Below, in pieces: positions 121 to 31,954 of a stretch of DNA of 64,000 nucleotides. The first letter of the stretch is position 1. The number at the start of each line of letters is the position of its first letter. The DNA comes from Clostridia bacterium (GTDB lineage Bacteria; Bacillota; Clostridia; RGIG6154). The stretch is taken from assembly GCA_017410375.1 (NCBI GenBank), contig JAFQQW010000058.1, positions 9,192-73,191 of the forward strand, given 5' to 3'. Under the pieces are notes generated by a model that was not told the origin of the DNA, made no database searches, and saw nothing but the letters and a program-made list of their open reading frames with translations. The position numbers and the translations under genes are program-made.

Positions 121-426
121 TTACAGCCCCAATGCCCGTCTTAATCGCTCTGCCTCGGGATCGTCGCTTTCACCGCCTGCAGGACCCGTAAACTGTACCG
201 CCTGCCCCTCAAACAAATAAGGGTGCTCGGAAAACAACTTCTCCACCGATGCCTCGGGGGTCAGATCGGACATATCCTGCTCGGCTAAAATGCCCTCTGC
301 CGCCGATACCGAACGCACTGAACGGGCGCTTAAATGTGCTCTTGTCACCTCTTTGCGCACCTCGCTTAAAATCTCAGCAATCTGCGCATCCTCTAAGGCA
401 TAGCCCTCCAAAAACTGTCTGTCCAT
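121..426 (-). CDS. hypothetical small phage-associated protein (101 aa)
   Basis: ORF immediately downstream of and overlapping (ATGA) the portal-like gene; no recognisable motif. Confidence 0.4.
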   Translation of the reverse strand: MDRQFLEGYALEDAQIAEILSEVRKEVTRAHLSARSVRSVSAAEGILAEQDMSDLTPEASVEKLFSEHPYLFEGQAVQFTGPAGGESDDPEAERLRRALGL

Positions 427-1541: not shown

Positions 1542-1629
1542 CTGTTCCTCCTTTCTCGCTTTTTGATCGTACGCGTCGCAACAAGCCTTCCTTTTACGCA
1601 TATGCTTTTTTATCAGGCTGTTGCTCCTT

Positions 1630-2808
1630 TTAGCCACCATAACACAAAATTGTACTCACAAAATAGCGGATGTCATCCATCGCGTGGTCTGAAACCTGCA
1701 CCACCGTATCGGTTGTGGCATCGGTGTCCCAGGCATAGGTCTCAAACTCCTTTTTTGTCGCCCTGCAGGCAGGACTGAAGCTTAAATATCCCTGCTCCAA
1801 CAGCGAGGACACCCGCCGAATGCCGTCCAGCACGCGATTTTTGGCTTTGCGCACCGAAAACCTGCCCGAGCGGCGTATCAGTTCGATAAAGGATGCCGCG
1901 GAGGGGTCAACCACCACACACGAAATGGGTCGGTCGCCCGCCAATTCCTCTAACGCCTTGTAATACTCCGCATCGGTCTTTAAGCTTTCTGTGGCTTTGC
2001 CGTCATGATAATACTCCCTGATGCGGTGGGCGTGCTTTCCCACCACCTGCCAAAGCCCCATGGAACACGGGTTTAAAGTCCCGTAATCCACCGAAATGTA
2101 GTAAGGATAGCCTGCGCGCTCTTGGACTTCCCTCACATGCTTTTCGGGGTCGAACATGGGGTACACCAACCCGGATGCAACCACCCAGTCCCCTTCCACA
2201 AACCGTTTGTAAAAGAGTCCGGTATACTCTTTTTTTAAATCGCGAATGTAGTCGGCGGGTAAAAACGTGTTGTCATCTATGTGAAACCGGACAGAAAGCA
2301 AACTTAAATCAGCACGGTCTAAATATTTTTCTTTCAGCCAGTGCCGGGGACTGTCCGGGTTGGTGGTCGCAATCAGCTTTGCGCCTTCTAAGCTCAGGCG
2401 CGAGAGCAACATGGAAAAAAAGCTTTCGGGAAGCAGAGTCAGTTCGTCTAAATAGGCACCGTACAGCGTCATACCGCGGATTTTGCTTTCCGCACCGCTG
2501 TCGCCTGCGCCCTCAAAATATACTTTGCGGTCAAACAGATTTCCGCTCTTTTTGGCAAGGGAGTATGTAAAATGATTTGCCCCTACCATGTTTTGCAGAA
2601 GCTCCAAAGCGTTTCGCTCTAAGGTATTTAAGGTTCGGCCTGCCATTAGAAAGGTGCTCCCTTTGGGCGAGGCGGCAACAAAAAACGCAAACAGAATGAG
2701 CGAAATGTAGGTCTTACCGCTGCGCACCGCCCCCTGCAGGATGTTGATACGCTTCAAGCCCCCTTGTTTGAACAGCTTTAAAAGCTCTGCCTGTTTTTCG
2801 GTTACCAT
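1630..2808 (-). CDS. phage terminase large subunit, PBSX/XtmB-like
   Basis: Walker-A GAVRSGKT near the N-terminus, ATPase then nuclease-like C-terminal half, AGGAGG RBS, followed by the portal-like gene. Confidence 0.8.
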   Translation of the reverse strand: MVTEKQAELLKLFKQGGLKRINILQGAVRSGKTYISLILFAFFVAASPKGSTFLMAGRTLNTLERNALELLQNMVGANHFTYSLAKKSGNLFDRKVYFEGAGDSGAESKIRGMTLYGAYLDELTLLPESFFSMLLSRLSLEGAKLIATTNPDSPRHWLKEKYLDRADLSLLSVRFHIDDNTFLPADYIRDLKKEYTGLFYKRFVEGDWVVASGLVYPMFDPEKHVREVQERAGYPYYISVDYGTLNPCSMGLWQVVGKHAHRIREYYHDGKATESLKTDAEYYKALEELAGDRPISCVVVDPSAASFIELIRRSGRFSVRKAKNRVLDGIRRVSSLLEQGYLSFSPACRATKKEFETYAWDTDATTDTVVQVSDHAMDDIRYFVSTILCYGG

Positions 2809-11332: not shown

Positions 11333-11755
11333 TTATTCTGTAATGATGACCGTTGATGTCTCATCATTCCATTCAACATTAAGTCCGAAGCTTTCGGACA
11401 CGGCGCGCAAAGGCACCATGGTGCGTTCACCGATTAACTGCGGTGCCACATCCAACTGAATCGGTTTGTCATTAACAAACAGAGTCGGTAAATCAATCTG
11501 CATAATCACGTTTACGTCCCCTGCAAAGGCAAACACGGTCTGCGTTGCATCTTCCCAGTAAATGTTTGCACCTAAGGCTTCAAAAATAAAGCGCATGGGA
11601 ACCATTGTTCTGTCGTTTACCAACTGCGGCTGTGTGTCGGGGAACACCAGCTCCTGTCCTTTTAACACCACATGGATGGTGTCCTCTGCAAAAACGGGCA
11701 ACGCCGTTGCAAAAATCAGACTTAAGCTGAGTAACAGACAAAGCCATTTTTTCAT
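11333..11755 (-). CDS. secreted copper-amine-oxidase N-terminal-like (stalk) domain protein
   Basis: Signal peptide; two DRTMVP(M/L)R...E(A/S)(L/F)G motifs characteristic of the Cu_amine_oxidN1 domain. Confidence 0.7.
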   Translation of the reverse strand: MKKWLCLLLSLSLIFATALPVFAEDTIHVVLKGQELVFPDTQPQLVNDRTMVPMRFIFEALGANIYWEDATQTVFAFAGDVNVIMQIDLPTLFVNDKPIQLDVAPQLIGERTMVPLRAVSESFGLNVEWNDETSTVIITE

Positions 11756-12527: not shown

Positions 12528-13319
12528 TTATTTATACATGTGCTCTAAATTGAGCCGTTTATAGCTTGCAGGGGTTTGTCCGAAGTGTTGCTTGAAAAGG
12601 CGCTGGAAATATTTTACATCCGCAAACCCCGCCTTTTCAGCGGTTTCGGTCACGTTGTAAAACCCGCTCTGCAACAGTCCCGAGGCATACTCAAGCTTTA
12701 AATTGATAATATACCGCGCAGGCGATATCCCGTAAATGCTTTTGAAAACCCGTCTGAAATACGCCTCCGAAACAGATGCCATCTCCGCAAGATACGCCAC
12801 CGAAATTTTCTCTTTACGGTAATTCTTATGCATATAGTCTATGATGCTGTCGGGAATTTTATCCGTCCCCACCGCAGAAACACTCTCCTTTTCGGTCTGC
12901 AGCCGCAAAAGGTACAAAAGCTGATACAAAAGCGCCATGCACGCCTGCTTATATCCCGTTTTTTTCTCGGTCCAGAGCTTGTACATGGATTGGGTAAGCG
13001 CCATCGCTTCTTCGCGGTTTTCGGGCGAAACGGTTTCCACCTCCGACCTTTTTTCCGAGCTGTACCGTATAAAATGAATGGCAATAATGCTCTCCCCTGC
13101 GGTTTCCTGACTGTATTTTTTTGTTTGGGGCAGATAAATAAAATCTCCGGTCTGCACCGTATACTGTCTGCCGTCGCAGGTAAAGCTTCCGCTTCCTGCG
13201 GTACGCACACTTAAGCTGTCATAATGTCTGTCATGGGCAATCCGCAAAACCGACGCAGACCGCCTGATTTTAAACACCCCGATTAAATCCACCAGAACGC
13301 TGTCATTTCCAAAAAACAT
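12528..13319 (-). CDS. AraC-family transcriptional regulator (cupin sensor + AraC HTH)
   Basis: C-terminal dual HTH (SVSEAYFRRVFK...KYFQRLFK); divergent from the hydrolase genes. Confidence 0.85.
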   Translation of the reverse strand: MFFGNDSVLVDLIGVFKIRRSASVLRIAHDRHYDSLSVRTAGSGSFTCDGRQYTVQTGDFIYLPQTKKYSQETAGESIIAIHFIRYSSEKRSEVETVSPENREEAMALTQSMYKLWTEKKTGYKQACMALLYQLLYLLRLQTEKESVSAVGTDKIPDSIIDYMHKNYRKEKISVAYLAEMASVSEAYFRRVFKSIYGISPARYIINLKLEYASGLLQSGFYNVTETAEKAGFADVKYFQRLFKQHFGQTPASYKRLNLEHMYK

Positions 13320-13460
13320 CTTTTGTTCACCTCTTTAATCAGTATATCTTGTTTTTCTTCGAAAGTCAAGTATCGTTTTGTCCACCTTTTAGTGCGATTT
13401 GTGCGTTTACAATCCACTTTAACCGTGTTACTCTATAGATAGAAAGTGAGGTTTAAAAAA

Positions 13461-14810
13461 ATGACTAAAAAAGAAATTTTAAGCAAAATGCTGATTCAGC
13501 CTAAGAAAATCGCCCTTGGCGAAGGCACAATGCAGCTTGACGCAAGCGCAACCGTTAAAACCAACTGCACCAAAGACATTTCGTATCTTTTACAGCTGGC
13601 AAGCCTTAAAAATGCTCAAGTGGTGGATGCAGACACCAAAATCTTCTTCCTTACCGCAGGCGAGGCAACTTTTACAGAACAAGCCGAATTCGATAACGAC
13701 GAAGCCTTCTATTTAAATATAGAAGAAAAGGGCTTTGCAATTGTGGCAAAAACCGAAGACGGTCTGCTTTTAGGCTTAAAGGCGATAATCCGCATGACAG
13801 AAGAATTGTCCGATTGCCTTCCCGTTATGGACATTTACGATTACCCCAACATTCCGTTCCGTGCGGTACACACCTGCATTTTCCGTCCCGATGACGGCAG
13901 TGACAAGGAAGAAAGCCATCCCGATTACATCAAAAAGATGATTAAAACCGCGGCTCTTGCAGGCTACAATCACATTTTCATTGAATTCTGGGGCATGTTC
14001 CCGTACAGCTTAGACTACGCACACTGGCCGAACGCCTATACAAAGGAAGAAATTGCAGATTTGATTGCCTTTGCCATGGATAAAATGCACATCCGTCCGC
14101 TCCCTGCACAGAATTTGACCACCCATGCAGGCTGGAGCCGAATTGTAACCCGTCAGCACACCGTTTTGGACCAGAGACCCGACATGGCAGACATGTACAT
14201 CCCGGGCGGTTGGTGCTTTGCCACCGAAAACCCCAAAACAAAAGAATTTATCAAGCTTTTGATTGACGAGCTGGTGGAAATGTTCCGCAATCCGCCTTAC
14301 TTACATTGCTGCTGTGACAAGGCATTTGGCTTTGGCTCTACAGAAGAGGACAGAACCATGAGCGCAGACATTTTGTTTGCAAAGCATATTTCGTTCTTAA
14401 ACACCTACTTGCGCGAAAAGGATGTCAGAATGGTGATGTGGGGCGATATGCTCTACTCCTCTATGGATGCTCTGTACTGGAAGTGTGACGAAAAAACCTC
14501 TGATTTCATTCCCAAGAATGTTTTGATTAACATCTGGACCCACAACGACCCGGGCAGAAAATGGCAGGATGCGGCATTCTTTGAAAACAAAGGTTTTGAG
14601 ACCGTTTATTCCCCGTTCATGGGCGAAAAGAGCATCGAGAGCATGGTTGCCCTCTGCCACGAAAGAGGAAGCCACGGTATCGTGCAGACCACCTGGCACA
14701 GACCCCAGAGTGCAACACCCTTTGTGATTCTGTCGGGTGCATTGCAGTGGTGCGGTGAAAAGCCGAGCAAAGAGCTGATTGAAACCCATAAGGAAAAGTG
14801 GTACAGATAA
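13461..14810 (+). CDS. putative glycoside hydrolase-like TIM-barrel protein (GH20-like/DUF4838-like)
   Basis: AraC-divergent position; TIM-barrel-like alternation; AAGTGAGG RBS 8 nt before the ATG at 13461; family assignment uncertain. Confidence 0.45.
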   Translation: MTKKEILSKMLIQPKKIALGEGTMQLDASATVKTNCTKDISYLLQLASLKNAQVVDADTKIFFLTAGEATFTEQAEFDNDEAFYLNIEEKGFAIVAKTEDGLLLGLKAIIRMTEELSDCLPVMDIYDYPNIPFRAVHTCIFRPDDGSDKEESHPDYIKKMIKTAALAGYNHIFIEFWGMFPYSLDYAHWPNAYTKEEIADLIAFAMDKMHIRPLPAQNLTTHAGWSRIVTRQHTVLDQRPDMADMYIPGGWCFATENPKTKEFIKLLIDELVEMFRNPPYLHCCCDKAFGFGSTEEDRTMSADILFAKHISFLNTYLREKDVRMVMWGDMLYSSMDALYWKCDEKTSDFIPKNVLINIWTHNDPGRKWQDAAFFENKGFETVYSPFMGEKSIESMVALCHERGSHGIVQTTWHRPQSATPFVILSGALQWCGEKPSKELIETHKEKWYR

Positions 14811-14825
14811 GAAAGGAAATATGTT

Positions 14826-15911
14826 ATGGTAAGCATTCCCGAAAAATTTAAAGACCATCCGATTTTTAACGAGCGGATTTGCGGTACAAATTTCGGTTTT
14901 TTAAACACGAGAGGCTACTACCGCACCGAAAATGCCAAAAAACAGCCCGAGCTGATGCAAAAAATGGGCATCAACTGGACTACACTTAACATCAACCTCT
15001 GTCAGGAAAAGGTGTTTTCCACCAAGCTGTTTATTGATTTCAAGTACACGGTTGGCGAAGACGAAATCATTGAAATGACCCGTCTTTTGCATGAAAAGAA
15101 TGTTAAGGTGCTGTTAAAGCCGTGCTTTACCTCTTTAGACGGTGCGCCCATGTGCTGTGTAGACTTCCCCACCAAGGAAGCCTGCCGTCAGATTGAGGGG
15201 GTTGTAACCGACTACTGGAAAGAATGGTTTGCTTCCTACACCGAAAGCATGCGCTATTTTGCAGACCTGGCTCAAAGGGCAGGGGTAGACAGTATGATGA
15301 TTGGTGCAGAATTAGAAGGTACTGCAGGACAGGACGAATACTGGCTGGATATCATCAAAACGGTAAGAAGTATTTATGATGGACCGATTACCTATGAATT
15401 CACCTTCGCATCCCGCAAAAAACATGCGCTTGAATGGATGAAGGAATTGGACTATTTAAGCTACAGCTACTATCCGCCTGCACAAAAACAGCTTCCCGAC
15501 ACGTACAACGCAAAGGCAGAAGAAATTAACGCACTCCCCACCCCCACAGTGGAGGAAATGGTGGAATTCTTAAAGCCCAGAAGAGACAGAATCAAGTCTA
15601 TCATAGAGCAGTTTGGCAACAAGCCCATTGTGTTTACCGAAGCAGGCGTGCGTTCGTCGCATGGGTGCAGTATGCTTCCCTATAACTTCAACTGGGAAAC
15701 CCGCTATGACGGTGAAGAACAGGCAAATTACATGGAAGCACTGTTCCGGACCTTCCATGACATCCCGGGCTGGATGGGACTGTTTTGGTGGAAATGGGAC
15801 GAAACCCAGCACCGTCCGCACTATCACACAGAGCCGGGGGTAGACAAGGGCTTTACCATTCAGGGCAAGCCTGCAGAAGCGGTCTTAAAGAAATGGTTTT
15901 TAAAGAAATAA
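14826..15911 (+). CDS. putative clan GH-A glycoside hydrolase (GH113/GH5-like)
   Basis: MIGAELEG-type catalytic Glu context and aromatic-rich TIM barrel; co-operonic with the other hydrolase-like genes. Confidence 0.45.
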   Translation: MVSIPEKFKDHPIFNERICGTNFGFLNTRGYYRTENAKKQPELMQKMGINWTTLNINLCQEKVFSTKLFIDFKYTVGEDEIIEMTRLLHEKNVKVLLKPCFTSLDGAPMCCVDFPTKEACRQIEGVVTDYWKEWFASYTESMRYFADLAQRAGVDSMMIGAELEGTAGQDEYWLDIIKTVRSIYDGPITYEFTFASRKKHALEWMKELDYLSYSYYPPAQKQLPDTYNAKAEEINALPTPTVEEMVEFLKPRRDRIKSIIEQFGNKPIVFTEAGVRSSHGCSMLPYNFNWETRYDGEEQANYMEALFRTFHDIPGWMGLFWWKWDETQHRPHYHTEPGVDKGFTIQGKPAEAVLKKWFLKK

Positions 15912-15957
15912 GTTTTGAAAATTATAAATTGCTTTTTAGTATTTGTATGGGCTTACC

Positions 15958-16208
15958 CATTGCATTATAGTATAATAATTGCGACTACAGAAAAAACACT
16001 TCGTGTTTTACATTTATGCAATTATTGTACCACGGAGTGATGAAGCAAGCCGACTACGGCTTGCACTTATGGTATAATAATTGCGACCAAAGAAAAAACA
16101 CTTCGTGTTTTACATTTATGCAATTATTGTACCACGGAGTGATGAAGCAAGCCGACTACGGCTTGCACTTATGGTATAATAATTGCGACCACGGAGTGAT
16201 GACAAAAA
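15958..16208 (+). repeat. tandem direct repeat (about 2.3 x 118 bp), each unit carrying TGGTATAAT and two hairpins
   Basis: The unit TATAATAATTGCGACC...CAAGCCGACTACGGCTTGCACTTATGG recurs at about 15965, 16075 and 16183. Confidence 0.7.
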
Positions 16209-16264
16209 GGCTCCCTCTGACGAGGGAGCTGGCAAACCGCAGGTTTGTCTGAGGGAGAGATAAA

Positions 16265-16395
16265 GCGAGCTTCGCTCGCCCCTCGTGAAAAGTATTTCGA
16301 AGAAAACTTTTCACGAAAAAGGAGCAACCGACCGAAAAACGAAGTTGGGTTTGCCAAAACACAACGAGACAAACGGTCGTGTTGCGACACAAAAA
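16265..16395 (+). repeat. repeat family A copy
   Basis: Hairpin GAAAAGT-ATTTCGAAGAAA-ACTTTTC; tail AAAAGGAGCAACCGACCGAAAAACGAAGTTG...GTTGCGAC matches 4258-4340. Confidence 0.55.
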
Positions 16396-16412
16396 TAAAG
16401 GAGAGTTTTAAG

Positions 16413-17453
16413 ATGGCAATCAAACACACAGGTATCAGCTATTACGGCATCAATTACGTAGAGCATGCCGAAGCAGATTTTAAAGAAATGCTTGAACACG
16501 GTGTGGACACCGTTATCCTGGCAATCACCGAATTTGACATGGATTTCTGGTTTCCCAACATCAATAACATTGTAAAAAAAGCACATGAATTAGGACTTCG
16601 AGTTATCGCAGACCCCTGGGGTATCGGCAAATATTTCGGCGGTGAGCAGGTAAGCTTGTTCTTACAGAACAACATTCATCACCGTCAGGTTTCGGCATAC
16701 ACAGGCGAAGTGTTAAACGCCGCTTGCTTTAATACCAATTCGTTCCGGGACTATTTCAAAGGCATTTGCTTAAAGCTTGCCAAAAACACCGAAGTGGACG
16801 GCTTTTTCTGGGACGAACCCCACTACGCATATCCTAAGGCTTACGCTTCCATCACAGGCGGTGCCGGAGATGACTGGGCTTGCAGATGTCCCGAATGTAT
16901 GAAAAAGTTTGAGGACTACTACGGCTATGAAATGCCCAAATTCATGAACGATGACGTAAAGCAGTTCAGATGGAGAGAAGCGCTTTACACCTTAACAGAT
17001 GTTTCCAAGGCTTTAAAGGAATACAATCCGAATTTGGAAATCACCTGCTGTGTACACGCAACCCTGAACTCGTATTATGTAACCGAGCTTCGGGGCTATG
17101 ACAACTGGGATATGGTGGCAAGCTGTCCGTATTTTGACGTATTCTCCACCACCATCATCAACTGGACCCTGCCCGAAAGCTTTTTCCGTGAAATCACCGA
17201 GCGCACCGTTGCCATGGCGAAAAAGTACGGCAAGCAGTCCGAGCGCTGGCTGATGGGCTACAACAACCGCCCTGCCGATTTTAGTCAGATTGACAAAGTG
17301 GTTGATATGTACGAAGAATTAGGCGTTGACCGCCTGGCAACCTGGACATACAGAGGCGGCTACGGCACATCGGTTGCCGCAAAGGATGCTTTAGAGCTTT
17401 GGGACAACATCGGCAGAAACTATAAGCGCGTTTTGAAAAAGGAGGACAAATAA
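16413..17453 (+). CDS. hypothetical TIM-barrel sugar-processing enzyme (GH42/clan-A-like)
   Basis: GAGAG RBS before the ATG at 16413; hydrolase-like beta/alpha periodicity; the ORF-track start at 16245 lies inside a repeat. Confidence 0.4.
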   Translation: MAIKHTGISYYGINYVEHAEADFKEMLEHGVDTVILAITEFDMDFWFPNINNIVKKAHELGLRVIADPWGIGKYFGGEQVSLFLQNNIHHRQVSAYTGEVLNAACFNTNSFRDYFKGICLKLAKNTEVDGFFWDEPHYAYPKAYASITGGAGDDWACRCPECMKKFEDYYGYEMPKFMNDDVKQFRWREALYTLTDVSKALKEYNPNLEITCCVHATLNSYYVTELRGYDNWDMVASCPYFDVFSTTIINWTLPESFFREITERTVAMAKKYGKQSERWLMGYNNRPADFSQIDKVVDMYEELGVDRLATWTYRGGYGTSVAAKDALELWDNIGRNYKRVLKKEDK

Positions 17454-18203
17454 ATGCAGGATTTTGGTTATTATGAATCTATACTTAAAAATTTAGAACA
17501 GGTCAATGCCACCCAGGAAGAAACTATCAAGGCGGCAGGCAAGCTGATGGCAGATGCCATTGCAGAGGACCGTTTAATTCATGTGTACGGCGGTGGCGGT
17601 CACACCACATTGCCGGTGGGTGAAATGTTTTTCCGTGCAGGTGGGCTTTCTTGCATCAACCCCGTTATGGAAACAGGCCTTTCGGTATTCAATCAGGCTT
17701 TAAAATACTTAGAATTAGAGCGCACCGTAAACTACGGCAGCTCTATCATGAAGTATTATGACTTAAAAAAAGACGATGTCTTAATTATTTTCCACAACAT
17801 CGGCATCAACCCTGCCACCATTGATGCGGCTATGGAAGCCAAAAAGCAGGGTGCAAAAATCATTGCGGTTTCATCCTCTTACTGGCAGGACGAAATGCCG
17901 GCTGACCATTTTATCCGTCATCCCAATAAGACAAACCTCTTTGATTATGCAGACGTTTGCATTGACGATTTCAATCCCGTAGGCGATGCGGTGGTTAACG
18001 TGCCGGGTCTTGATACCCCCATCGCGCCCATTTCCAACATTGTGGATTTTTATATCGCACATTTATTGGAAATCGAAACAGTACGCCAGTGCGTAGAACG
18101 TGGCATCACACCGCCCGTGTGGAACAGCGCCAACACCCCCGGCGGTGACGAAAAGAACGCAGGCTATCTTGAAAAATATAAACCCAGAATCAAAATGTTA
18201 TAA
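17454..18203 (+). CDS. SIS (sugar isomerase) domain protein
   Basis: Rossmann-like SIS fold segments (IHVYGGGGH...); translationally coupled to the upstream gene (TAAATG). Confidence 0.65.
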   Translation: MQDFGYYESILKNLEQVNATQEETIKAAGKLMADAIAEDRLIHVYGGGGHTTLPVGEMFFRAGGLSCINPVMETGLSVFNQALKYLELERTVNYGSSIMKYYDLKKDDVLIIFHNIGINPATIDAAMEAKKQGAKIIAVSSSYWQDEMPADHFIRHPNKTNLFDYADVCIDDFNPVGDAVVNVPGLDTPIAPISNIVDFYIAHLLEIETVRQCVERGITPPVWNSANTPGGDEKNAGYLEKYKPRIKML

Positions 18204-18912: not shown

Positions 18913-19029
18913 GGAATAGGAAAAAATGTTTGGAATGAACGAATCGAACCCCAAAGGGGTATGCCCGCAATTATACAAAGGTATATTGCGGGTTTGATTC
19001 GTTTATAGCAAAAACGCATCAATCAAAAG

Positions 19030-19064
19030 AAAACACGCAAAAAATTTGCGTGTTTTCTTCATTT
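19030..19064. terminator. hairpin GAAAACACGCAAAAAATTTGCGTGTTTTC, candidate terminator for the giant minus-strand gene
   Basis: 12-bp stem followed by U-rich tracts on both strands. Confidence 0.45.
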
Positions 19065-19153: not shown

Positions 19154-22100
19154 TTATTTGCCTTTAATGGTTATTGTAGGCTTAAATTTCGACCAGTCTG
19201 CATCGGAGTTATAGGCTTCGGTGATTGTTTTGCAATCTACCAGCAACAGCAACTGTTCCGAATTGCTTCTGTCCTCATTGTTGTCGATTTTTGCGGTAAT
19301 TTTCTGTTCATCACCGTTTAAATCCTTGTAAGCAATTTCAATCTCCAGACCTTTGAGCATGCCGGGTGCCACCTCAAAGGGGAAATCCTTTCTGTTGCAA
19401 ACCAGGCGTAAGCCTGTACCCTCACCTGCGTTGGTGGGCTTAACCGTAAAGGTCTTAAAGTCAGCAGGAAGTGTTGCATCAGAGGTTGCAGGCGGCAAAG
19501 TAACTTCGGGTGCTTCTACCGCACCTGCATCCTCACCGGGCGCAATAATGGTTAAGGTAAACTTGTGCGTCTTTGCCTTGTCATTATCGTAGTCAATTGC
19601 CTTTAAGCCGTTAACGGGGTCAAGCTGCAGAACGGTTGCGGTTTCACGCATTTCGTTCTTCATGATGGTGCCCACAAATTCCTGTTCGTCACCATTGTCT
19701 ACGCTCTTCATTTTAATTTTAATCTTAAGACCCTTTAACATATCCTCAGCCAGTGCAAAGGGATATTTGTCAAGCGGTGTTACAAAACGGAGGCTTTCAC
19801 TGCTTACGCCCTGGGTGCTGTAAGGAATGCTGAAGCTCTTGAATTCGGGAAGCTTGCTGCCGGGTGCTGCGCCCTGCTGGGCAGCATCGCTGTCAAACTT
19901 ACCGCTTGCGTTTAATTTCACATCTTCAAAATCCTTGTCGGGCGAGAGAATCACCATGTCACAAGGAAGTGTTGCAATCAGTCTGTAATCCTGATACGGA
20001 ACAGCCTCGGTGGGTTCAACGCAAAGCACAAACGTACCGTCATCACGCACTTCGTTAGCCGTAATAACACTCTCTAAAAGCACCTTTTGTCCGGTCGCCT
20101 TATCGGTCATAATGCCTTTAATCTGCAAGCCTGCAAGCATGTTCGGGGTAATCTTTTCCCAGGGAGCGCCCTCAAGTCTTGTTACAAAGCGCAAAAGGTT
20201 GTTGCCGCAGCCCATACCGTGAATGGAAGCGGTAAAGTTTTCAAAGGGCTTTAAGCCGGACTTTAATGCCTCAACCTTATCGCCTTTTTTATATGCCTTC
20301 TGCTCGCTTGCCTTGATGGGGCTTAAAGTACCTTCGCCCAAATCAATTTCTTTGCCGGAATGGTCGGTTGCCTTAACGCTGAAATTAAAGTCAGCCTTGG
20401 GATTATCCACCTTAACGATGGTTTCGAAGGGATATACATCAATCTTTCTGCTTTCGGTCTTACCGTCAACCGTATAGGTAAAGGTCACATCCTTTACATC
20501 CTTTGCCATCTTGGTCGAATAGATGTATGCATAGTAGTTATTGTCGTTAAACTGCATGAGATATGCCTTACCGCCGTCAAACTGTGCAACGGTGTTGCCG
20601 ATAGACTGGGAAGGTGTATATTCTCTTACATAAGACGGCACCTTTACATCCGGGTGCAATACCACAGACTGAATGCCCTTTGCAGGAATGGTTAAGGTAA
20701 ACTTACCGTCAACGATTTCAACGGTGGACTTGTTGCCTTCCTTATCGTAAAGGGTTGCGGTTTCGCTATACGAAGAAGCGTTCGGAATCTTGTCACCCAA
20801 AGTAATGGTGGTGGTTAAGGTATCTGCGCCTTCGTTTACAAATGCAACGCCTAAAACGCCGTCCTTTTTCGCAGGTAAGTAGTCAACGTCCGGAGAATCG
20901 GGCTCTACAATACCGCGGTCTAACCACATCCACATACCGTCTTCATCATAGAATTTACCCGAATCAAAACCGTACTGGTTGGTTACAAAGTATGCATAAC
21001 CTTGGTTTACAGCGGTGGGGAATTCTACCTTTCCGCCGGATTTCTGCCAGATGTCATTGATTAAGAAGTCTTCCATGAGCCCCAAGAATACCGGAATATG
21101 ATGCCAGTAAATCAGGTTGGAGTCAGGACCGTCGATGGGATAGTTTGCCTTCTTGTCATGGAACGAATATCTTTCGTAATAGTAACCCGAATAGTTTCCG
21201 AATCGACCAATCATGGCATTTCTTGCCTGGGTGATGAAGAAATCATCGCCTGTATATTCACCAAGTCTTAAACCGGTACCTGCCCACATGTTCATGATGA
21301 TGGCATTACCGTTTGAAGGTGTCATGGTGTGCTCGGTGGACATACCTGCTCTTGCAGGTACCCAACCGGGGCCTGTTTCGGTTTCAATCAGCTTTTCACT
21401 CGGATTTTCGGCATCAAATACCGGCTTATTTACGCCAACCGGGTTACCGATACGCCACTGGGTACCGTCCTTATGGAAGAACCAGGTTGCTTTATCGTTT
21501 GCCATGGGTCTGGAATAGAATTTTTCGGGGGTTACGGTGTAGTCGGTGGTCGCATAATCATTCTGATAGCCTGTGGTCCAGAGCGCCATCATAATCAGCT
21601 GACCCACTTCTTCTGCCGCATCTAAGTATTTCTGTTCGCCTGTTGCTTCGTACGCAGAAATGAACGACTGCAGCATCGGCACATCATTGGAGTAGATAAA
21701 TCCGCCGTAGGGCTTGGTATAGAAGGTTGTGCCTTCTTTCAAGGTGCTGTCAATATATTTGTCGGTTGCTGCCTTGATTTCTTCTTCATACTGACCGGGG
21801 AACATATCGTTCATTGCGGTGTAGCCGGTAACCGCAGAAAGGTTATTGCCTGCGCCAAGCTTAGATACCGCATGGTTCATCAGGAACGGCGTTCTGCCCT
21901 GGGACATACGGTAAAGCGCAAGGTAGGAGGAAGGTCCGAAACCGCCGTTAAAGCCATTCAGGGGCACGGGGGTAACAGAAGTGTAGGAGTTAGAGCCTTC
22001 CACACGCTTAAAGTGCATACCGCCTCTGGAAATCATGTAAGCGATGGACGGAATACCGCGTTCTTCCAAAATTTCTTCGTTGTCGGTGAGCATGTATCTC

Positions 22101-24136
22101 TGCATCAATTCCACAACGTTGGACTGGGTGGTAACCATTTTCGCTTCCATGTTATAAAATGCCATATCCTTGTCATCCCAACCGCCGTAGGTATCGTCCA
22201 TAATCAGGTCGGTACAGTTGTAGATGGCTTCGTTCAAGGAATGATATACATTATGACGCAGGTCAACGCAGTTAAAGATGTCCTGTGCCACATGCTTGTA
22301 GTTGTCATACCAGTCATCGCCGTTGTAAATCAAGCGGTAACCGAAGGTATGTACATCGCCTGCTTCGAAAACAGAGCCTTCAGAGCCCTGAAGCGGCGCA
22401 ATAATCTGACCTCTTACATTGCCGTTGGGGGCACGGAACAAGATACCGTAATCGGATCTGCCGGGGGTTGCAATGTCCTGACGGACAAACAGCGGGTCAA
22501 CTGCAATACCCTTGGTGATTGCGTTCTCGCCTTCACCGAAGGTAAAGGTTACCATAGGTGTAAACATCATGTATTCTGCCAGTACCGCATCGTCTTCGGG
22601 CACAAAATCCTTGGTGTACATCAAGGGTGCGGTTACACGGTCATAGGTACCGTCTTTAAAATCAGAACCGGTAAAGTGTGCAAACGAATACGAGCCGGGA
22701 GTCTTGATGGTTGCATTAAAGGTAACTTTGGGTTCATAGGTTACATCGTTATAAGTATATGTAAGGGTTGCATCTACATTTGCGTTAGACAGACCCAAAA
22801 CAACGGTCTGGTCATCCAGCTTCTGCATGGTGGTGGGAATTAACCACTCAGAGGTACCTGATTTGTAGAAATTCTTGTGACCGCTTAAGGTCAGTTCACC
22901 GTCATGGGTATCAAAGGTAGAGGTAAATCTGTGCCAGGGTGTTTCGGAAAGGGATGCAACGGGCGGTCTGGTAGTGGAAAGCGGTGCGTCGTTTGCACGA
23001 ACTGCCAGTACACCCAAATCCTCGTTTCTGCCCTTTACTTCAATCCAATTGCCGTTTTTGTTGATTAAAATACGGTTCTGGATAACAGAGCCACGGTTTG
23101 TGGTACCCTGATAGAATTCAATTTTAATCTTGTCGTTGCCGATGGTTTCGGAAGCAACGTCTTCGATTTCGCCCTTTGCCCACTGGGGATAGTTACCGGG
23201 AATAATCGCACCGACTTTAGAGCTTTCCTGATAATAATCCATATATCCTGTATCGGAAGGCACAAAGTTTAAGTCAGGACTCACCATAACACCTGCCGCA
23301 CGGGCAAAGAATCTTGAAGTATCCTGGAAGGAAATCTTGTGTGCGCCTTTGGTCAGCTCATACACGCCAACCTCGTCAAAGGAAAAGCCTTCCTTACCGT
23401 GTGCACCAAACTTTGTGGGCGAACGCTGACCGTCTACCGCAATGTGGAAAAAGCGGGTACCGGGCTGGTTGGTCTTATAGTCCTTGGAAAGACCCCAGAT
23501 TTTGTATTTGCCGTCAAAGGGAATGTCAATCAAAAGCTCTGCATCTCCGTCGGTTGCACCGATTTCTAAGGTTTCACCGTCTTTTGTGGTGGTTCTGCCC
23601 TTAATGATGCCGTCGCCGTCTACAGACCAAACACCCAAATCATAGCAGTCGGATACCGAATAGTAACGGGTAAAGGATTCGGCGGATTCCTGATCTAAAA
23701 CGCGGTCAATGGTAACGGTCTGGGTCTTGTCATCCCAGCCTACCTTCGCACCTAAGGATTCGGATACAAAGCGAATGGGAACCAAAGTTCTGCCGTCTTT
23801 TAATACAGCAGGCTGGTCTAATTCATACGCTTCACCGTTTACGGTTGCGGTGGTGTCACCAATGGGCAATACCATCGAGCCGGAGGTATTGCTGTATGCC
23901 GTAACGGTTTCGTTCAATTCGCTCCAGTACACGGTTGTGTCCAGTGCTTCAAAAATGGCACGCATAGGTACCATGGTACGGTCATTCATTAAGATGGGCT
24001 GTACATCAAATTCCAGCTTTTCACCGTTTAAAATAACCGTGATGTTGTCTGCCGCGCTAACGGTTGCAGGCACGAATGCAAGCATGGATGCCAGCATGCA
24101 AAGCACAACAAACAACGAAGTCAGTTTTTTACTCAT
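19154..24136 (-). CDS. giant secreted multidomain protein (1660 aa): signal peptide, two Cu-amine-oxidase-N-like domains, a large probable carbohydrate-active central region, three C-terminal repeats of about 110 aa
   Basis: Uninterrupted 4983-nt ORF; N-terminal hydrophobic signal; DRTMVPMR / GRTLVPIR stalk motifs; C-terminal repeats share LRFV...ML.GL.I.I...G.EQ. Confidence 0.7.
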   Translation of the reverse strand: MSKKLTSLFVVLCMLASMLAFVPATVSAADNITVILNGEKLEFDVQPILMNDRTMVPMRAIFEALDTTVYWSELNETVTAYSNTSGSMVLPIGDTTATVNGEAYELDQPAVLKDGRTLVPIRFVSESLGAKVGWDDKTQTVTIDRVLDQESAESFTRYYSVSDCYDLGVWSVDGDGIIKGRTTTKDGETLEIGATDGDAELLIDIPFDGKYKIWGLSKDYKTNQPGTRFFHIAVDGQRSPTKFGAHGKEGFSFDEVGVYELTKGAHKISFQDTSRFFARAAGVMVSPDLNFVPSDTGYMDYYQESSKVGAIIPGNYPQWAKGEIEDVASETIGNDKIKIEFYQGTTNRGSVIQNRILINKNGNWIEVKGRNEDLGVLAVRANDAPLSTTRPPVASLSETPWHRFTSTFDTHDGELTLSGHKNFYKSGTSEWLIPTTMQKLDDQTVVLGLSNANVDATLTYTYNDVTYEPKVTFNATIKTPGSYSFAHFTGSDFKDGTYDRVTAPLMYTKDFVPEDDAVLAEYMMFTPMVTFTFGEGENAITKGIAVDPLFVRQDIATPGRSDYGILFRAPNGNVRGQIIAPLQGSEGSVFEAGDVHTFGYRLIYNGDDWYDNYKHVAQDIFNCVDLRHNVYHSLNEAIYNCTDLIMDDTYGGWDDKDMAFYNMEAKMVTTQSNVVELMQRYMLTDNEEILEERGIPSIAYMISRGGMHFKRVEGSNSYTSVTPVPLNGFNGGFGPSSYLALYRMSQGRTPFLMNHAVSKLGAGNNLSAVTGYTAMNDMFPGQYEEEIKAATDKYIDSTLKEGTTFYTKPYGGFIYSNDVPMLQSFISAYEATGEQKYLDAAEEVGQLIMMALWTTGYQNDYATTDYTVTPEKFYSRPMANDKATWFFHKDGTQWRIGNPVGVNKPVFDAENPSEKLIETETGPGWVPARAGMSTEHTMTPSNGNAIIMNMWAGTGLRLGEYTGDDFFITQARNAMIGRFGNYSGYYYERYSFHDKKANYPIDGPDSNLIYWHHIPVFLGLMEDFLINDIWQKSGGKVEFPTAVNQGYAYFVTNQYGFDSGKFYDEDGMWMWLDRGIVEPDSPDVDYLPAKKDGVLGVAFVNEGADTLTTTITLGDKIPNASSYSETATLYDKEGNKSTVEIVDGKFTLTIPAKGIQSVVLHPDVKVPSYVREYTPSQSIGNTVAQFDGGKAYLMQFNDNNYYAYIYSTKMAKDVKDVTFTYTVDGKTESRKIDVYPFETIVKVDNPKADFNFSVKATDHSGKEIDLGEGTLSPIKASEQKAYKKGDKVEALKSGLKPFENFTASIHGMGCGNNLLRFVTRLEGAPWEKITPNMLAGLQIKGIMTDKATGQKVLLESVITANEVRDDGTFVLCVEPTEAVPYQDYRLIATLPCDMVILSPDKDFEDVKLNASGKFDSDAAQQGAAPGSKLPEFKSFSIPYSTQGVSSESLRFVTPLDKYPFALAEDMLKGLKIKIKMKSVDNGDEQEFVGTIMKNEMRETATVLQLDPVNGLKAIDYDNDKAKTHKFTLTIIAPGEDAGAVEAPEVTLPPATSDATLPADFKTFTVKPTNAGEGTGLRLVCNRKDFPFEVAPGMLKGLEIEIAYKDLNGDEQKITAKIDNNEDRSNSEQLLLLVDCKTITEAYNSDADWSKFKPTITIKGK

Positions 24137-24198
24137 ACTTCTTCATCCTTTCTTACTTTTTACAGGTGATGTAAAAACTACACCTATTGTATAAAACT

Positions 24199-24228
24199 AT
24201 TATACACTACCCTTTAAATTGCTGTCAA
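24199..24228 (-). promoter_or_regulatory. consensus sigma-A promoter TTGACA-18-TATAAT for the giant gene
   Basis: -35 at 24223-24228 and -10 at 24199-24204 on the minus strand. Confidence 0.5.
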
Positions 24229-25492: not shown

Positions 25493-26794
25493 TTACACTT
25501 CCTTTATCAGAATGCTGCTGCACACATCCATTTTAAAGGTAAGGTTATCGGTAATCTCTGCAAAGGTGCCGTCGTGTTCGGCATCAAGCAGATATATTTC
25601 ATACTTTCCTTCTTTTCCAAAGTCAATGTTAACCTCTTTTGATGGTGCATTTTCGTCGTGGTCATCATAATAGGTTACGATACACATCACTTTGCCCTGT
25701 TCATCTTTTCCGCACAAGGTATATATTTTTTCAGGCTGATTTTCGCATCTGATTTCGACAGTTAAATCATAAAACATACCATACCAGTAAAGAGGATAAT
25801 ACCCTTTCAACGGAAGTGTGGTGTAAAAATCAAAAGCACCGCAAAACACGCTTGGTCTTGTGTCATAATACATCAACATATCAATGCCGTCATTTTTTTG
25901 CGCCTCCGAAATACAAGCCATGGTAAAGGTTGCGCCTTTAATACCGTGCATAGTCTGAATGGAATAAATATATTCGTCGGTCCAACCCTTAACATAATTC
26001 CATTCATTTAAAATGCTTTCAGCATTGCCGTAACCGTAGTGATTCATCATTTCACGCACTTGCGTTGCCCTTGCCATCATTTTATTTGGTTCGGTGCAAT
26101 AACAATGCCACGAGAAGAAATCCAATTCAACCCCTCTTGCCTGCATTTCTTTTAAAAATCTTTCGCCCCATTCCACATCAAACGCAATGGCAGGTCCACC
26201 GATTTTAATGTTGGGAAAACATTTTTTCAAATGTTTCGCCGCCGTTTCAAACAGGTCGAAAAACTGTTCATCCGTGCCTGTCCAGCAACCGCCACCTTTT
26301 ACATCAGGCTCGTTCCAGATTTCCCAATACTCCATCCCAAGTTCAAAGCCGTTTGCCCATCCTTGGTTGTAATGGCGAATGATATGTTCACATATTTCCG
26401 CCCATTTCTGAAAATCTTTTGGCGGATTTGCACCGTGTTTTACCACGTGATGCTCAATGGTCTGCCCAAGACGGAAAAAGGTTTGCGTACCTGCATCCAA
26501 AGTTACAAGAACGGATTCATCGGTACACGGAAAATCATAAGATTCGGGTGTGTGCACATCTGCATCAAAAAAAGGAAATATTTTTGTGATATCGTGACTG
26601 TACGGTCCGCCGTATACACTCACAACCCCCGAATCGTGATTACGAGAATAAGGAATTCTTGCCGCTTTATACGCTTCAAAATTACTCTGATTCTGTCCGT
26701 CGGTATGTCGTTTGTGCCAGGGACCACCGTTTGTGGCATTCAAAATTTTAAACTTCTGCCCCGCTTTGTTTAAATCAAATTTCAACATTTCCAT
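25493..26794 (-). CDS. glycoside hydrolase, GH39-like (clan GH-A)
   Basis: WEIWNEPD catalytic acid/base motif typical of GH39/GH5. Confidence 0.55.
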   Translation of the reverse strand: MEMLKFDLNKAGQKFKILNATNGGPWHKRHTDGQNQSNFEAYKAARIPYSRNHDSGVVSVYGGPYSHDITKIFPFFDADVHTPESYDFPCTDESVLVTLDAGTQTFFRLGQTIEHHVVKHGANPPKDFQKWAEICEHIIRHYNQGWANGFELGMEYWEIWNEPDVKGGGCWTGTDEQFFDLFETAAKHLKKCFPNIKIGGPAIAFDVEWGERFLKEMQARGVELDFFSWHCYCTEPNKMMARATQVREMMNHYGYGNAESILNEWNYVKGWTDEYIYSIQTMHGIKGATFTMACISEAQKNDGIDMLMYYDTRPSVFCGAFDFYTTLPLKGYYPLYWYGMFYDLTVEIRCENQPEKIYTLCGKDEQGKVMCIVTYYDDHDENAPSKEVNIDFGKEGKYEIYLLDAEHDGTFAEITDNLTFKMDVCSSILIKEV

Positions 26795-28935: not shown

Positions 28936-31062
28936 TCAAAATCTATATTTCCCTGCCTTTTTCCATTCGGTTTTGCCATCTATTGTCACATAGCAGTCAA
29001 TGGGAATCTCGATTTCGTAATGTACCCTTTCTCCCTCATACTGCCATGCCGATTTTATCAAGCCATACATCGAATGGAATTCTGCATTTAAATCGCCTAA
29101 CTGCTTATCAGGCTTGGGTGCAATTTCGATGCCCTTTTCCGAAACGCGAATGCCTGCAGAGACCGCATACACCCACTCTAAAACCGAGCCGTAGGCATAA
29201 TGATTAAAGGAATTCATATCCTTGCTCCAGAATGTGCCGTCCTCTTTTTTGCTGTCCCAATGCTCCCAGATGGTGGTTGCCCCCTGGTTTACCGAAAACA
29301 GCCAGGACGGGAATTTTTCCTGCAGCAACAGCGTGTACGCAAGCTCTGTATAGCCGTTTTCGCTTAACGCAAACAGTAGATAGGGCGTACCCACAAACCC
29401 TGTGGTTAAGCGGTTGCCGTTTTGCTTTATCATTTCCGCCAATTGGTCTGCAATCTGCTTTTTATGGTCGGTCAAATCAAAATGCAGTGCCAACACACAT
29501 TCGGTCTGGGTTTTAAAGACAGGAAACCGTTTGATAAACGCCTTTCGTACATTCTCTGCTTTTTGGGCATAAAAATCATATTTGCCGTTTTGCAAAACCT
29601 TTGCGGATTTTGCCACTAAATCGGCACAGTATTTTAAGTAAGCCGAAGCAATCAAGTCCTCATCCGTTGCGCCTTTGTAAGAGCCTTCTTCATTATCCAG
29701 ACCCAGCCAGTCCCCGTGACCGCTGTGTCCGACCCATAAATTCTGCTCCCTCGAAGTGGATTCCATGTACGAAATCCATTTCTCCATCATGGGAAAATGC
29801 TTTTGCAAAAGGTCTTTGTCGCCGTACATCTCATACAAAACCCAGGGACAAATGACCGCCGCATCGCCCCAGGCAGGGGACAGAAAATCGGCATTGATTT
29901 TGTTCTGCACCACAAAATTCGGCACGGTATCGGGAACGGCACCGTCATTTCGTTGCTCAGCCTGCATATCGTTTAACCATTTGGTAAAGAATTTCTTTAC
30001 ATCATACTGATACGACGCGGTCTTGATAAATACCTGCGCATCTCCCGTCCAGCCCAATCGCTCGTTGCGTTGCGGACAGTCGGTGGGAATGTCCAAAAAG
30101 TTCCCTTTTTGTCCCCACAAAATATTTGAGAACAGTTGATTTACCTTTTCGTGGCTTGTTGCTATATACCCCGTGCGTTTTAATTCGGAATGCACCACAA
30201 TGGCAGTAAATTTCGTTTGCTCGGGCGCGCTGTCCACACGGACATACCGAAAGCCATAAAACACCGTTTTAGGCTTATAGCTTTGCTTTCCGTCTTTACA
30301 AATATATTTATAAATACATTTTGCATCGCGGTAATTTTCGGTATAGAAATTGCCGTCTTTATCCAAAACCTCCGCAAAGGAAAGAGAAATTTCTTCGCCA
30401 TTTTTTGCATTGGTTTCAAGCCCGATATAGCCCGTAATTTCCTGCCCGAAATCCAAAACCCTTTCGCCTTTCGGGGTCACAAAGGTTGCAATCGGCTTAA
30501 AACGTTCCTGCTCCTTGATTTCTTCCCCCTCTTGCGGAATTAAAATCGCCTTGTTGTAGCAGGCATGCTGTACTGCTTCCGGCTCACTTTCAAAGTTGGC
30601 GTCAAAAATTTCACCGTCATATATATCAGAAAAAAGCACCTTGCTCTTTTTGACCTGCCAGCTTAAATCGGTGCCGATGCGCTCGGTTTCCGTTTCATAC
30701 TCTAAAATAAGCTCTGCAATAAGAGACGGCTGACTTTGAATCTGACTTTGATAGCTTCTGGTAATGCCGCCTCTGAACCAGCCGTTGCCCACAAGTACCG
30801 AAAGGGTGTTTTCTCCCGCTTTTAAAAGATGGGTTACATCATAGGTCTGGTACTGCAAGCGTGTAATAAAATCGGTACAGCCCGGTGCCAGTACATACTC
30901 CGACACACGCGCATCATTTATTTTTGCTTCATATACCCCAAGACATGTCAAGGTAAGGCTTGCAGATTGCAAACCTTTTTTGACCGTTATGCTTTTTAAA
31001 TACTCAGGACAAATCCCCTCAAAATTGCTTTGGGGAACAATCCATAAACTGTCCTTTAACAT
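28936..31062 (-). CDS. alpha-L-rhamnosidase (GH78)
   Basis: GH78 N-terminal bacterial rhamnosidase region (GNGWFRG..) and length; AAGAGGTG RBS before the ATG at 31062. Confidence 0.7.
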   Translation of the reverse strand: MLKDSLWIVPQSNFEGICPEYLKSITVKKGLQSASLTLTCLGVYEAKINDARVSEYVLAPGCTDFITRLQYQTYDVTHLLKAGENTLSVLVGNGWFRGGITRSYQSQIQSQPSLIAELILEYETETERIGTDLSWQVKKSKVLFSDIYDGEIFDANFESEPEAVQHACYNKAILIPQEGEEIKEQERFKPIATFVTPKGERVLDFGQEITGYIGLETNAKNGEEISLSFAEVLDKDGNFYTENYRDAKCIYKYICKDGKQSYKPKTVFYGFRYVRVDSAPEQTKFTAIVVHSELKRTGYIATSHEKVNQLFSNILWGQKGNFLDIPTDCPQRNERLGWTGDAQVFIKTASYQYDVKKFFTKWLNDMQAEQRNDGAVPDTVPNFVVQNKINADFLSPAWGDAAVICPWVLYEMYGDKDLLQKHFPMMEKWISYMESTSREQNLWVGHSGHGDWLGLDNEEGSYKGATDEDLIASAYLKYCADLVAKSAKVLQNGKYDFYAQKAENVRKAFIKRFPVFKTQTECVLALHFDLTDHKKQIADQLAEMIKQNGNRLTTGFVGTPYLLFALSENGYTELAYTLLLQEKFPSWLFSVNQGATTIWEHWDSKKEDGTFWSKDMNSFNHYAYGSVLEWVYAVSAGIRVSEKGIEIAPKPDKQLGDLNAEFHSMYGLIKSAWQYEGERVHYEIEIPIDCYVTIDGKTEWKKAGKYRF

Positions 31063-31072
31063 AAGACACCTC

Positions 31073-31954
31073 TTATTTTGCAATCAAAGTATCGTTTTTC
31101 TCTTCCACATCTGCAAAATGCGGACGTTCTGCACCTTTGGGATTGTTGGGCTGATGGTATGCAAATTTCATGTCGCCTGCTTTGTCATAAAACAGCATAC
31201 CGTGTCCGCCGTCTTTGGAGAAAAGCAACTTTTCTTCGTGTGCCCAGTTGCCAAGTACAGAGCCGTTATCCGAATAAGAAATGGCTTCGCAGTAGCCCTC
31301 TTTGGTAAAACTCGACCAAATCATAAGCAAACGACCGCTTTTTGTTCTGTACATAAACGGACCGTCTGTAACAAAGTTGCCTTTACTGTCACAATTCTGC
31401 CCCGGCGCATACCCCACTTCACACACCCCGGGAAGGGAGGATGCCGTAAACAACACCTTGGGCTCGCCTACCGCTTTTGTCAAATCCTTTGACAATTCAA
31501 TGACGCACATTTCTCCGTCGTGCACCTGCACCCACTCGTGGCAGAACACCATATAAGGCGTGCCGTTTTCAATGTGGAGCGTACCGTCTAAGCACATCCA
31601 GTCAGCAGGTGTTACGGGACCTTCGCTATGTAATTTAAAGGGACCCAAAGGACTTTCTGCCTTTAAAATCTGCGTACCGCGCATTTTGTCTTTGGCATAA
31701 AAGGTAGCCAACATATAATATGCACCCTCATATTTATGCACCTCGGGCGCCCAGAAATTTCTGTCCGACCAAAAATCCGCAGGGGGTGTAAACACCTCAA
31801 TGGGGTCGGAAAAGGTCTCTAAATCGTCGCTTACATACACATCAAGCCCTGTGCATAAGCCCCAGGTTTCGCTGCCCCGGCTTCCGTACATATAATATTT
31901 TCCGTCCTCATAAAGCACAAAGGGATCTCTGATGTTAATATCTGTATTTTTCAT
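31073..31954 (-). CDS. GH43-family glycoside hydrolase (five-bladed beta-propeller; arabinanase/xylosidase-like)
   Basis: N-terminal IRDPFVL catalytic-Asp motif; recurring WAPE / W..E blade motifs. Confidence 0.8.
   Translation of the reverse strand: MKNTDINIRDPFVLYEDGKYYMYGSRGSETWGLCTGLDVYVSDDLETFSDPIEVFTPPADFWSDRNFWAPEVHKYEGAYYMLATFYAKDKMRGTQILKAESPLGPFKLHSEGPVTPADWMCLDGTLHIENGTPYMVFCHEWVQVHDGEMCVIELSKDLTKAVGEPKVLFTASSLPGVCEVGYAPGQNCDSKGNFVTDGPFMYRTKSGRLLMIWSSFTKEGYCEAISYSDNGSVLGNWAHEEKLLFSKDGGHGMLFYDKAGDMKFAYHQPNNPKGAERPHFADVEEKNDTLIAK

Follow-up and report, generated by a model that had tools for sequence, protein, structure and literature searches.

Which function can be assigned to a giant protein of a Clostridia bacterium whose core matches no family in Pfam or NCBIfam, and on which substrate could it act? 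The question is raised by the only long open reading frame of the interval 19154-24136, located on the minus strand of the window, i.e., of the whole 64,000-nucleotide stretch of DNA analyzed here. An initial annotation, made by eye from the sequence, had reported this 1660-aa reading frame, which we confirm, and had proposed that its product could be a novel enzyme of carbohydrate metabolism. We consider in turn the gene, the domain architecture of its product, the distribution and conservation of the family, and the genomic context of its members, and then weigh the alternative explanations.

The gene is monocistronic, because it has its own promoter, is preceded by the terminator that closes the upstream RlmL-type methyltransferase gene, and carries a hairpin and a T-tract after its stop codon (Table 1). 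The terminator of the RlmL-type gene lies upstream of the promoter of the 1660-aa gene. Both the consensus promoter and the terminator ascribed to the gene initially are therefore present. The gene had also been described as sitting next to rhamnosidase, GH43, and GH39 genes. Such genes are indeed found upstream (GH78, GH43, and GH39), but they do not form one operon with the 1660-aa gene, since the RlmL-type methyltransferase gene (an rRNA methyltransferase), GalT, and a terminator intervene. The gene is only loosely tied to its own genomic neighbors.

Table 1. The 1660-aa gene, the domains of its product, and neighboring glycosidase genes (positions in the window)
Feature	Residues	Position	Strand	Basis or remark
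Coding sequence	1-1660	19154..24136	minus	1660 aa + stop, ATG start, complete
Sigma-70-type promoter TTGACA-18 nt-TATAAT		24199..24228	minus	12/12 consensus matches
Shine-Dalgarno-like AAGGATG (AAGGA)		24144..24150	minus	~7 nt 5' of ATG, read from sequence
Intrinsic-terminator-like hairpin, palindrome AAGAAAACACGCAAA...TTTGCGTGTTTTCTT then TTTTGATT		19027..19059	minus	T-tract, ~95 nt past the stop codon
Sec-type signal peptide	1-28	24053..24136	minus	predicted cleavage after VSA, judged by eye
Cu_amine_oxidN1 domain	36-143	23708..24031	minus	Pfam E 4e-37; two ~50-aa half-repeats, internal alignment
CBM35/malectin-like beta-sandwich	150-295	23252..23689	minus	AlphaFold2 model
Galactose-mutarotase-like beta-supersandwich	325-605	22322..23164	minus	AlphaFold2 model
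(alpha/alpha)6 six-hairpin toroid, presumed catalytic domain	609-1034	21035..22312	minus	AlphaFold2 model
Beta-sandwich domain 1	1042-1160	20657..21013	minus	most conserved segment among Clostridial homologs
Beta-sandwich domain 2	1183-1271	20324..20590	minus	AlphaFold2 model
Beta-barrel module copy 1	1293-1407	19916..20260	minus	segment-wise BLASTP, HMM
Beta-barrel module copy 2	1427-1542	19511..19858	minus	modelled copy, pLDDT 95.3
Beta-barrel module copy 3	1554-1660	19157..19477	minus	segment-wise BLASTP, HMM
GH39 gene		25493-26794		neighbor upstream of the 1660-aa gene
GH78 gene		28936-31083		neighbor upstream of the 1660-aa gene
GH43 gene		31073-31954		neighbor upstream of the 1660-aa gene

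The N-terminus contains the single hydrophobic segment of the protein (residues 3-30, ending VSA|AD), and a Sec-type signal peptide is predicted to export it. A scan of all 1660 residues revealed neither an additional transmembrane segment nor an LPXTG motif, and Pfam found no SLH domains. Thus nothing points to covalent or S-layer anchoring, be it by LPXTG, by SLH domains, or by a transmembrane segment at the C-terminus, and the prediction agrees with the secreted protein proposed initially.

The signal peptide is followed by a Cu_amine_oxidN1 (PF07833) domain, which scores 126.8 bits (cut-off 24.2) over profile positions 2-108 of 108. The stalk assignment of the initial annotation is thus correct, whereas its count of two modules is not: there is one domain, whose halves align to each other, which accounts for the earlier count. 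By sequence this segment is a clear member of the family of the stalk domain D1 of the E. coli copper amine oxidase, and the A2 profile of the family matches D1 at residues 7-78 of the E. coli enzyme. However, no amine oxidase catalytic domains follow the stalk in the 1660-aa protein, where it is an accessory of a secreted Firmicutes protein. The window also encodes the smaller stalk-type protein noted initially (11333..11755), which indeed consists of a signal peptide and one Cu_amine_oxidN1 domain and is 47% identical to residues 26-143 of the 1660-aa protein.

For the remainder of the protein (residues 150-1660), Pfam, NCBIfam, and PDB sequence searches gave nothing significant, only a sub-threshold C5-epim_C trace, and a single-sequence search of PDB with the protein returned only noise. 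The initial remark that the core has no recognizable family signature therefore holds in these databases. The AlphaFold2 model of residues 150-1300 (1151 residues), built from a 45-sequence alignment, has a mean pLDDT of 90.6 and a pTM of 0.88 and is divided into five domains. The first one resembles CBM35 in fold, with no significant Pfam match in this segment. The second resembles aldose-1-epimerases as well as the corresponding domains of GH38, GH94, and PL26. In the third, which has long insertions at residues ~850-950, six helical hairpins close into a toroid with an inner and an outer layer of helices, which places this domain at the level of fold in the six-hairpin (alpha/alpha)6 glycosidase-like superfamily. 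Two beta-sandwich domains complete the core.

Family profiles compared with PDB sequences matched six-hairpin enzymes, namely GH76 (1.6e-7), GH146 (6ex6), GH88/GH105, a PL15/17-type alginate lyase, and PL35. These matches come solely via one helical hairpin with the motif Y..TGD..YLD.A, and this hairpin aligns to three different hairpins of GH76. Together, the model and the profile matches confirm, at the fold level, the alpha/alpha-toroid that had been guessed initially. Comparison of the whole 1151-residue model with PDB by Foldseek produced low-TM alignments, with TMt values of 0.38 for PL27 (5no8), 0.24 for the GH127 enzyme HypBA1, and 0.67 for CBM35 (2w47). GH101 EngBF was on top with a TM-score of 0.15, and such multi-domain alignments are uninformative for the toroid. 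The entire five-domain architecture was not found by Foldseek in any solved structure of PDB.

Besides GH127/GH146, considered below, two groups of known enzymes come closest to the core. One comprises the six-hairpin GH76 alpha-1,6-mannanases, GH88/GH105 unsaturated uronyl hydrolases, and AGE-type epimerases, with only 8-14% identity. These are single-domain proteins, whereas here the toroid, with its insertions, is embedded in a ~1100-aa five-domain unit. The other group shares the combination of supersandwich and toroid and includes GH95 fucosidase, GH94/GH149 phosphorylases, GH15/GH65, and PL27 rhamnose-glucuronate lyase (5no8), but the TM-scores are only 0.11-0.38 and there is no sequence similarity.

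A word-indexed search detected 387 relatives of the protein, essentially all unnamed and from uncultured Clostridia, with at least eight paralogs in one MAG (locus tags IJE10_*). An exhaustive phmmer search with residues 300-1290 against 1.84 billion cluster representatives yielded 551 representatives at E up to 1e-3, 463 of them at E up to 1e-10, and none of the 551 bears a name. Since there are just 551 matches among so many representatives, the family is rare. Distant relatives, identified by a genome scan and BLAST, come from Thermoguttaceae, Opitutales/Opitutaceae, Capsulimonadaceae, and Chitinophagaceae (Longitalea, Niabella). They are 24-27% identical over residues ~190-1270 and for the most part are ~1140-aa proteins devoid of accessories. 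The ~1100-aa core is kept from Clostridia to Bacteroidota, Verrucomicrobiota, Planctomycetota, and Armatimonadota. The parts around it vary: a Paenibacillaceae member (36-41% identical) is without Cu_amine_oxidN1 and keeps four copies of the C-terminal module, and in one distant member the core is accompanied by CBM32, NPCBM_assoc, Big_4, and laminin-G modules. The public names of 10 distant members are all "hypothetical protein" or missing, and no characterized member was found in the literature on Cu_amine_oxidN1, golvesin, new six-hairpin families, or copper amine oxidase domains in Clostridial glycoside hydrolases.

Conserved positions were derived from an alignment of 18 sequences across phyla, including relatives of 24-27% identity. 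The residues kept in 17-18 of the 18 sequences are (i) in the toroid, D625, R627, N640, W653, E664, R693, R704, Y829, T832, E935, T939, R978, Y982, Y985, H1013, and D1023, and (ii) in the CBM35-like domain, W170, Y211, W214, D219, R228, and R279. On the secondary structure of the model, most of the conserved toroid residues map to long loops entering the inner helices, which are those with tight turns after them, e.g., the TGD turn. In six-hairpin enzymes, the active site is found on the face where long loops enter the inner helices. From this topology, rather than from measured distances, we infer that the conserved polar residues share one pocket. Catalysis would then occur in a pocket at one face of the toroid, lined by E664, E935, D625, D1023, R627, R693, R704, R978, H1013, and Y829/Y982/Y985. 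A set so rich in Arg, His, and Tyr suggests an anionic or heavily decorated glycan and is compatible with acid/base hydrolysis as well as with beta-elimination by a lyase. Any choice of catalytic residues among these candidates is guesswork, because acidic residues are not conserved at the position aligned to the GH76 Asp-Asp pair and no Cys/Zn site of the GH127 type.

In Longitalea luteola, the family gene is part of a SusC/SusD locus that also encodes DUF5017, an SSF transporter, GH97, a beta-helix protein, and two further six-hairpin proteins. Around the Paenibacillaceae member there are genes for AraC, for a two-component system of the YesM/YesN type (a His_kinase/AraC-response-regulator pair), and for ABC sugar permeases. 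In Clostridial contigs, AraC regulators adjoin the family genes (L015, L017 with two, L019, and L020), and tandem paralogs are observed in L015, L018, L019 (three), and L020. Such a context is characteristic of inducible enzymes that are secreted and break down glycans, and the tandem arrays, usually beside AraC-type regulators, suggest substrate-induced enzymes with diversified specificities. In gut Clostridia the arrays also adjoin exo-glycosidase genes, and the glycosidase partners vary from locus to locus. A GH20 gene is shared by the window and the loci L015 and L020, a GH78 gene by the window and L014, the latter also with GH38 and GH16. A GH95 gene is located 23 nt upstream of a family gene in L016. 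Rhamnose isomerase is encoded near homolog P0037 and RhaA in L018, and homolog P0006 has GH78 and a GDSL/CE2-like esterase nearby. Because these partners are mixed (rhamnose, fucose, hexosamine, mannose), no substrate can be called.

Both the toroid fold and the carbohydrate-active role suggested initially are thus supported. In our view, the 1660-aa protein is probably a secreted multi-modular carbohydrate-active enzyme that represents an uncharacterized family within the six-hairpin (alpha/alpha)6 superfamily; it could be either a hydrolase or a lyase. In such an enzyme, Cu_amine_oxidN1 and the three family-specific beta-barrel modules would be Firmicutes-only accessories, presumably holding it on the substrate or the cell surface. 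A more specific formulation, which we offer tentatively, is that of an undescribed GH or PL family, characterized by a five-domain core in at least five phyla, a dedicated and likewise undescribed ~105-aa beta-barrel module in Firmicutes, and an expansion in uncultured gut Clostridia to some ten or more AraC-paired paralogs in each genome. Sequence searches of Pfam, NCBIfam, and PDB gave no match of the core at the family level, and the family may already hold a CAZy number without a Pfam model or structure.

The main rival to the enzyme is a cell-surface protein that binds glycans and lacks catalytic activity, for example an adhesin or an S-layer-associated protein, with the toroid as a degenerate binding scaffold. 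Large paralog families with variable terminal modules would fit such a role, as would the occurrence of Cu_amine_oxidN1 in numerous surface proteins of Firmicutes that have no assigned function, the stand-alone copy in the window among them, and the fact that no known catalytic motif was recovered. Still, we consider a surface protein of this kind unlikely. The polar and charged residues of the toroid loops are strictly kept across phyla at ~25% overall identity, which is typical of an active site; one member resides among glycosidases in a SusC/SusD utilization locus; the pairing with AraC regulators is usual for inducible catabolic enzymes; and the protein lacks SLH, LPXTG, and any other domain for anchoring.

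The initial annotation had favored a pectin or rhamnogalacturonan-active enzyme, i.e., a partner of the nearby GH78 rhamnosidase, GH43, and GH39. These genes are located 1.4-8 kb upstream, the surroundings of P0006 and P0037 likewise contain genes that could belong to such a pathway, and a uronic-acid substrate would suit the four conserved arginines. Against this substrate, the gene has its own promoter and is separated from these glycosidase genes as described above. Other homolog loci show GH20, GH95, GH38, GH16, and AraC instead of pectinases, and no PL1, PL9, PL11, GH28, or GH105 genes were found near any family member examined. No rhamnogalacturonan lyase or hydrolase stands out among the structural matches, the PL26 match being limited to the beta domain. 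With AraC, paralogs, and GH20, GH78, GH95, GH38, and GH16 as neighbors, nothing is specific to pectin, which has no better support as a substrate than host or microbial glycans, and we regard this specificity as improbable.

A divergent GH127/GH146 beta-L-arabinofuranosidase is a far more doubtful solution. NCBI gives this name to homolog P0078, the general layout of these enzymes is alike, with a toroid followed by beta-sandwich domains, and GH127_cat (PF07944) is the Pfam family touched most often by the toroids of our family (8 of 12). However, these matches are weak (best E 1.3e-6; 20-29 bits against a cut-off of 24.9, thus around the gathering threshold) and cover only the ~100 residues of a generic helical hairpin (profile positions ~130-232 of 376), while the 1660-aa protein itself has no match at E up to 1. 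Enzymes of GH127/GH146 use a catalytic Cys nucleophile and a Cys3-Glu zinc site, as known for HypBA1. Among 98 family sequences, no toroid column is a conserved cysteine (at most 18% Cys in any column), and therefore the Cys/Zn chemistry is excluded. The low TM-score to HypBA1 and the extra N-terminal CBM35-like and supersandwich domains also argue against GH127/GH146, and we reject this membership on the absent cysteine and the partial Pfam matches.

Equally improbable is a GH76-like retaining endo-alpha-1,6-mannanase. The match to GH76 is the repeated Y-x-x-T-G-D-x-x-Y-L-x-x-A hairpin motif, a generic element that is structural and not catalytic; Pfam GH76 (PF03663) is found in 1 of 12 toroid sequences (E 0.0024) and not in the 1660-aa protein; and GH76 enzymes are ~350-aa single toroids without flanking domains. 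GH76 enzymes use two adjacent catalytic aspartates located where an inner helix begins, namely D124/D125 of Aman6 from Bacillus circulans. In a low-confidence HMM alignment to Aman6 chains, the NDD stands opposite variable, non-acidic positions of the family, just past the invariant F813. The D647/D648 pair seen in Clostridial members is not retained by the distant ones. Since neither GH127 nor GH76 fits, we assign the 1660-aa protein to no known family of GH or PL. Two further candidates were rejected. A GH94/GH149-type phosphorylase shares the supersandwich and toroid layout, yet these phosphorylases are cytoplasmic and the signal peptide makes such an assignment unlikely. A gellan-lyase-type system was considered in view of the GH78 neighbor, but the known gellan lyases constitute PL33 (PMC6442616), and we could establish no sequence link between them and the family.

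The family is thus a solid candidate for enzyme discovery, although of a familiar kind, i.e., a new family in a well-known fold class. It is not surprising in any fundamental way, since the six-hairpin clan regularly yields novel CAZyme families. Were its members catalytic, they would constitute one more family of glycoside hydrolases or lyases and provide a function for several hundred "hypothetical" giant proteins of gut Clostridia and of polysaccharide-utilization loci in Bacteroidota and Verrucomicrobiota. The strong expansion of paralogs, which have AraC regulators of their own, suggests a set of tools for a class of substrates with diverse structures, and identification of the substrate could explain the diet of uncultured gut Clostridia. 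Should the family indeed be an undescribed one, its expansion would imply a class of complex glycans or linkages to which no degrading enzyme family has been assigned.

The C-terminal triple repeat noticed initially is real and consists of independent modules. The three copies of ~110 aa each, recovered by segment-wise BLAST and HMM but not listed by self-BLAST of the full protein, show pairwise identities of 30-38% (BLASTP E 1e-9 to 1e-11). Fifty single copies were aligned to model one of them, which folds into a small closed barrel made up of about seven beta-strands in this model, and the conserved positions of the module are F, G, R (in LRFV), PF, E, and NE.R. The suggestion that the repeats are carbohydrate- or cell-wall-binding modules found no backing among the known ones, since neither sequence nor fold matches CBMs, SLH, SH3b, LysM, or CWB. 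The best structural match is to EF-Tu domain II and other "translation protein" beta-barrels, but the identity to these barrels is 4-14% and the context is unrelated, so that the likeness is probably just topological. Among 262 collected proteins, all ORFs of 20 loci, and the window, the module is confined to members of the family, and it is missing from the distant ~1140-aa forms. As far as sampled, it is a mobile accessory module specific to the Firmicutes branch of the family, which could be a new binding module; it occurs in one to five copies, placed either at the C-terminus or right behind the signal peptide.

The large gene, which encodes the 1660-aa secreted candidate six-hairpin enzyme, belongs to a family whose members are arranged in tandem on four related Clostridial contigs (L015, L018, L019, and L020). 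Each array contains two or three genes for proteins of 1600-2100 aa, and at least eight paralogs are found in total on four scaffolds of a single metagenome sample, ERZ28653904. An AraC regulator usually adjoins the arrays, and in L015 and L020 the combination of AraC and GH20 is observed again beside the paralogs. In the window, the operon facing the large gene, and converging with it, consists of a GH20-like gene, GH113, and genes for a 402-aa protein and a SIS-domain protein. The 402-aa protein has no match in Pfam; in L020, a homolog of it (25% identity, E 1e-19) is encoded immediately next to one of the large protein's paralogs.

The promoter of the large gene is the sole perfect sigma-70 site within the 6.3 kb scanned. 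This single perfect match suggests that expression of the large gene is strong and constitutive or activator-independent, though AraC regulators accompany its paralogs at other loci.

The stand-alone stalk protein shares 47% identity with the large protein's residues 26-143, and could be a partner or a competitor for the ligand of the stalk domain. A distant family member is located in a SusC/SusD locus of Longitalea luteola (L010), where two more large proteins have weak matches to GH127_cat, GH88, and C5-epim_C. The (alpha/alpha)6 toroid of our query is locally similar to one of these two proteins (E 1e-10). The weak matches and this similarity indicate that the locus contains three divergent six-hairpin proteins.

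Features of the window and of the Longitalea luteola locus
Feature	Sequence	Position	Strand	Description
Phage large terminase	window	426-2808	-	Terminase_6N/Terminase_3; this stretch also gives a weak SPP1-type portal match
Stand-alone stalk protein	window	11333-11755	-	secreted, 140 aa; signal peptide, one Cu_amine_oxidN1 domain
AraC regulator and divergent operon	window	12528-18203	AraC -, operon +	
402-aa protein	window	16245-17453	+	within the operon
Promoter of large gene	window	24199-24228	-	sigma-70; 12/12 vs E. coli-type consensus, 18-nt spacer
Long same-strand gene run	window	38407-63451	-	
Fkp-like protein	window	42756-45725	-	989 aa, within the run
Large protein	L010	6111-8741		same SusC/SusD locus as family member
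Large protein	L010	16553-19393		same SusC/SusD locus as family member

Elsewhere in the window, the terminase region at its start is probably a prophage edge or a phage remnant. The long gene run includes genes for UDP-glucose dehydrogenase, galactokinase, NAD-epimerase/dehydratase, an FrhB/FdhB-like Fe-S protein, and an Fkp-like bifunctional fucokinase/GDP-fucose pyrophosphorylase. Approximately 15 more ORFs come after these. Judging from the annotated genes, the run looks like a region of sugar-nucleotide and surface-polysaccharide biosynthesis.
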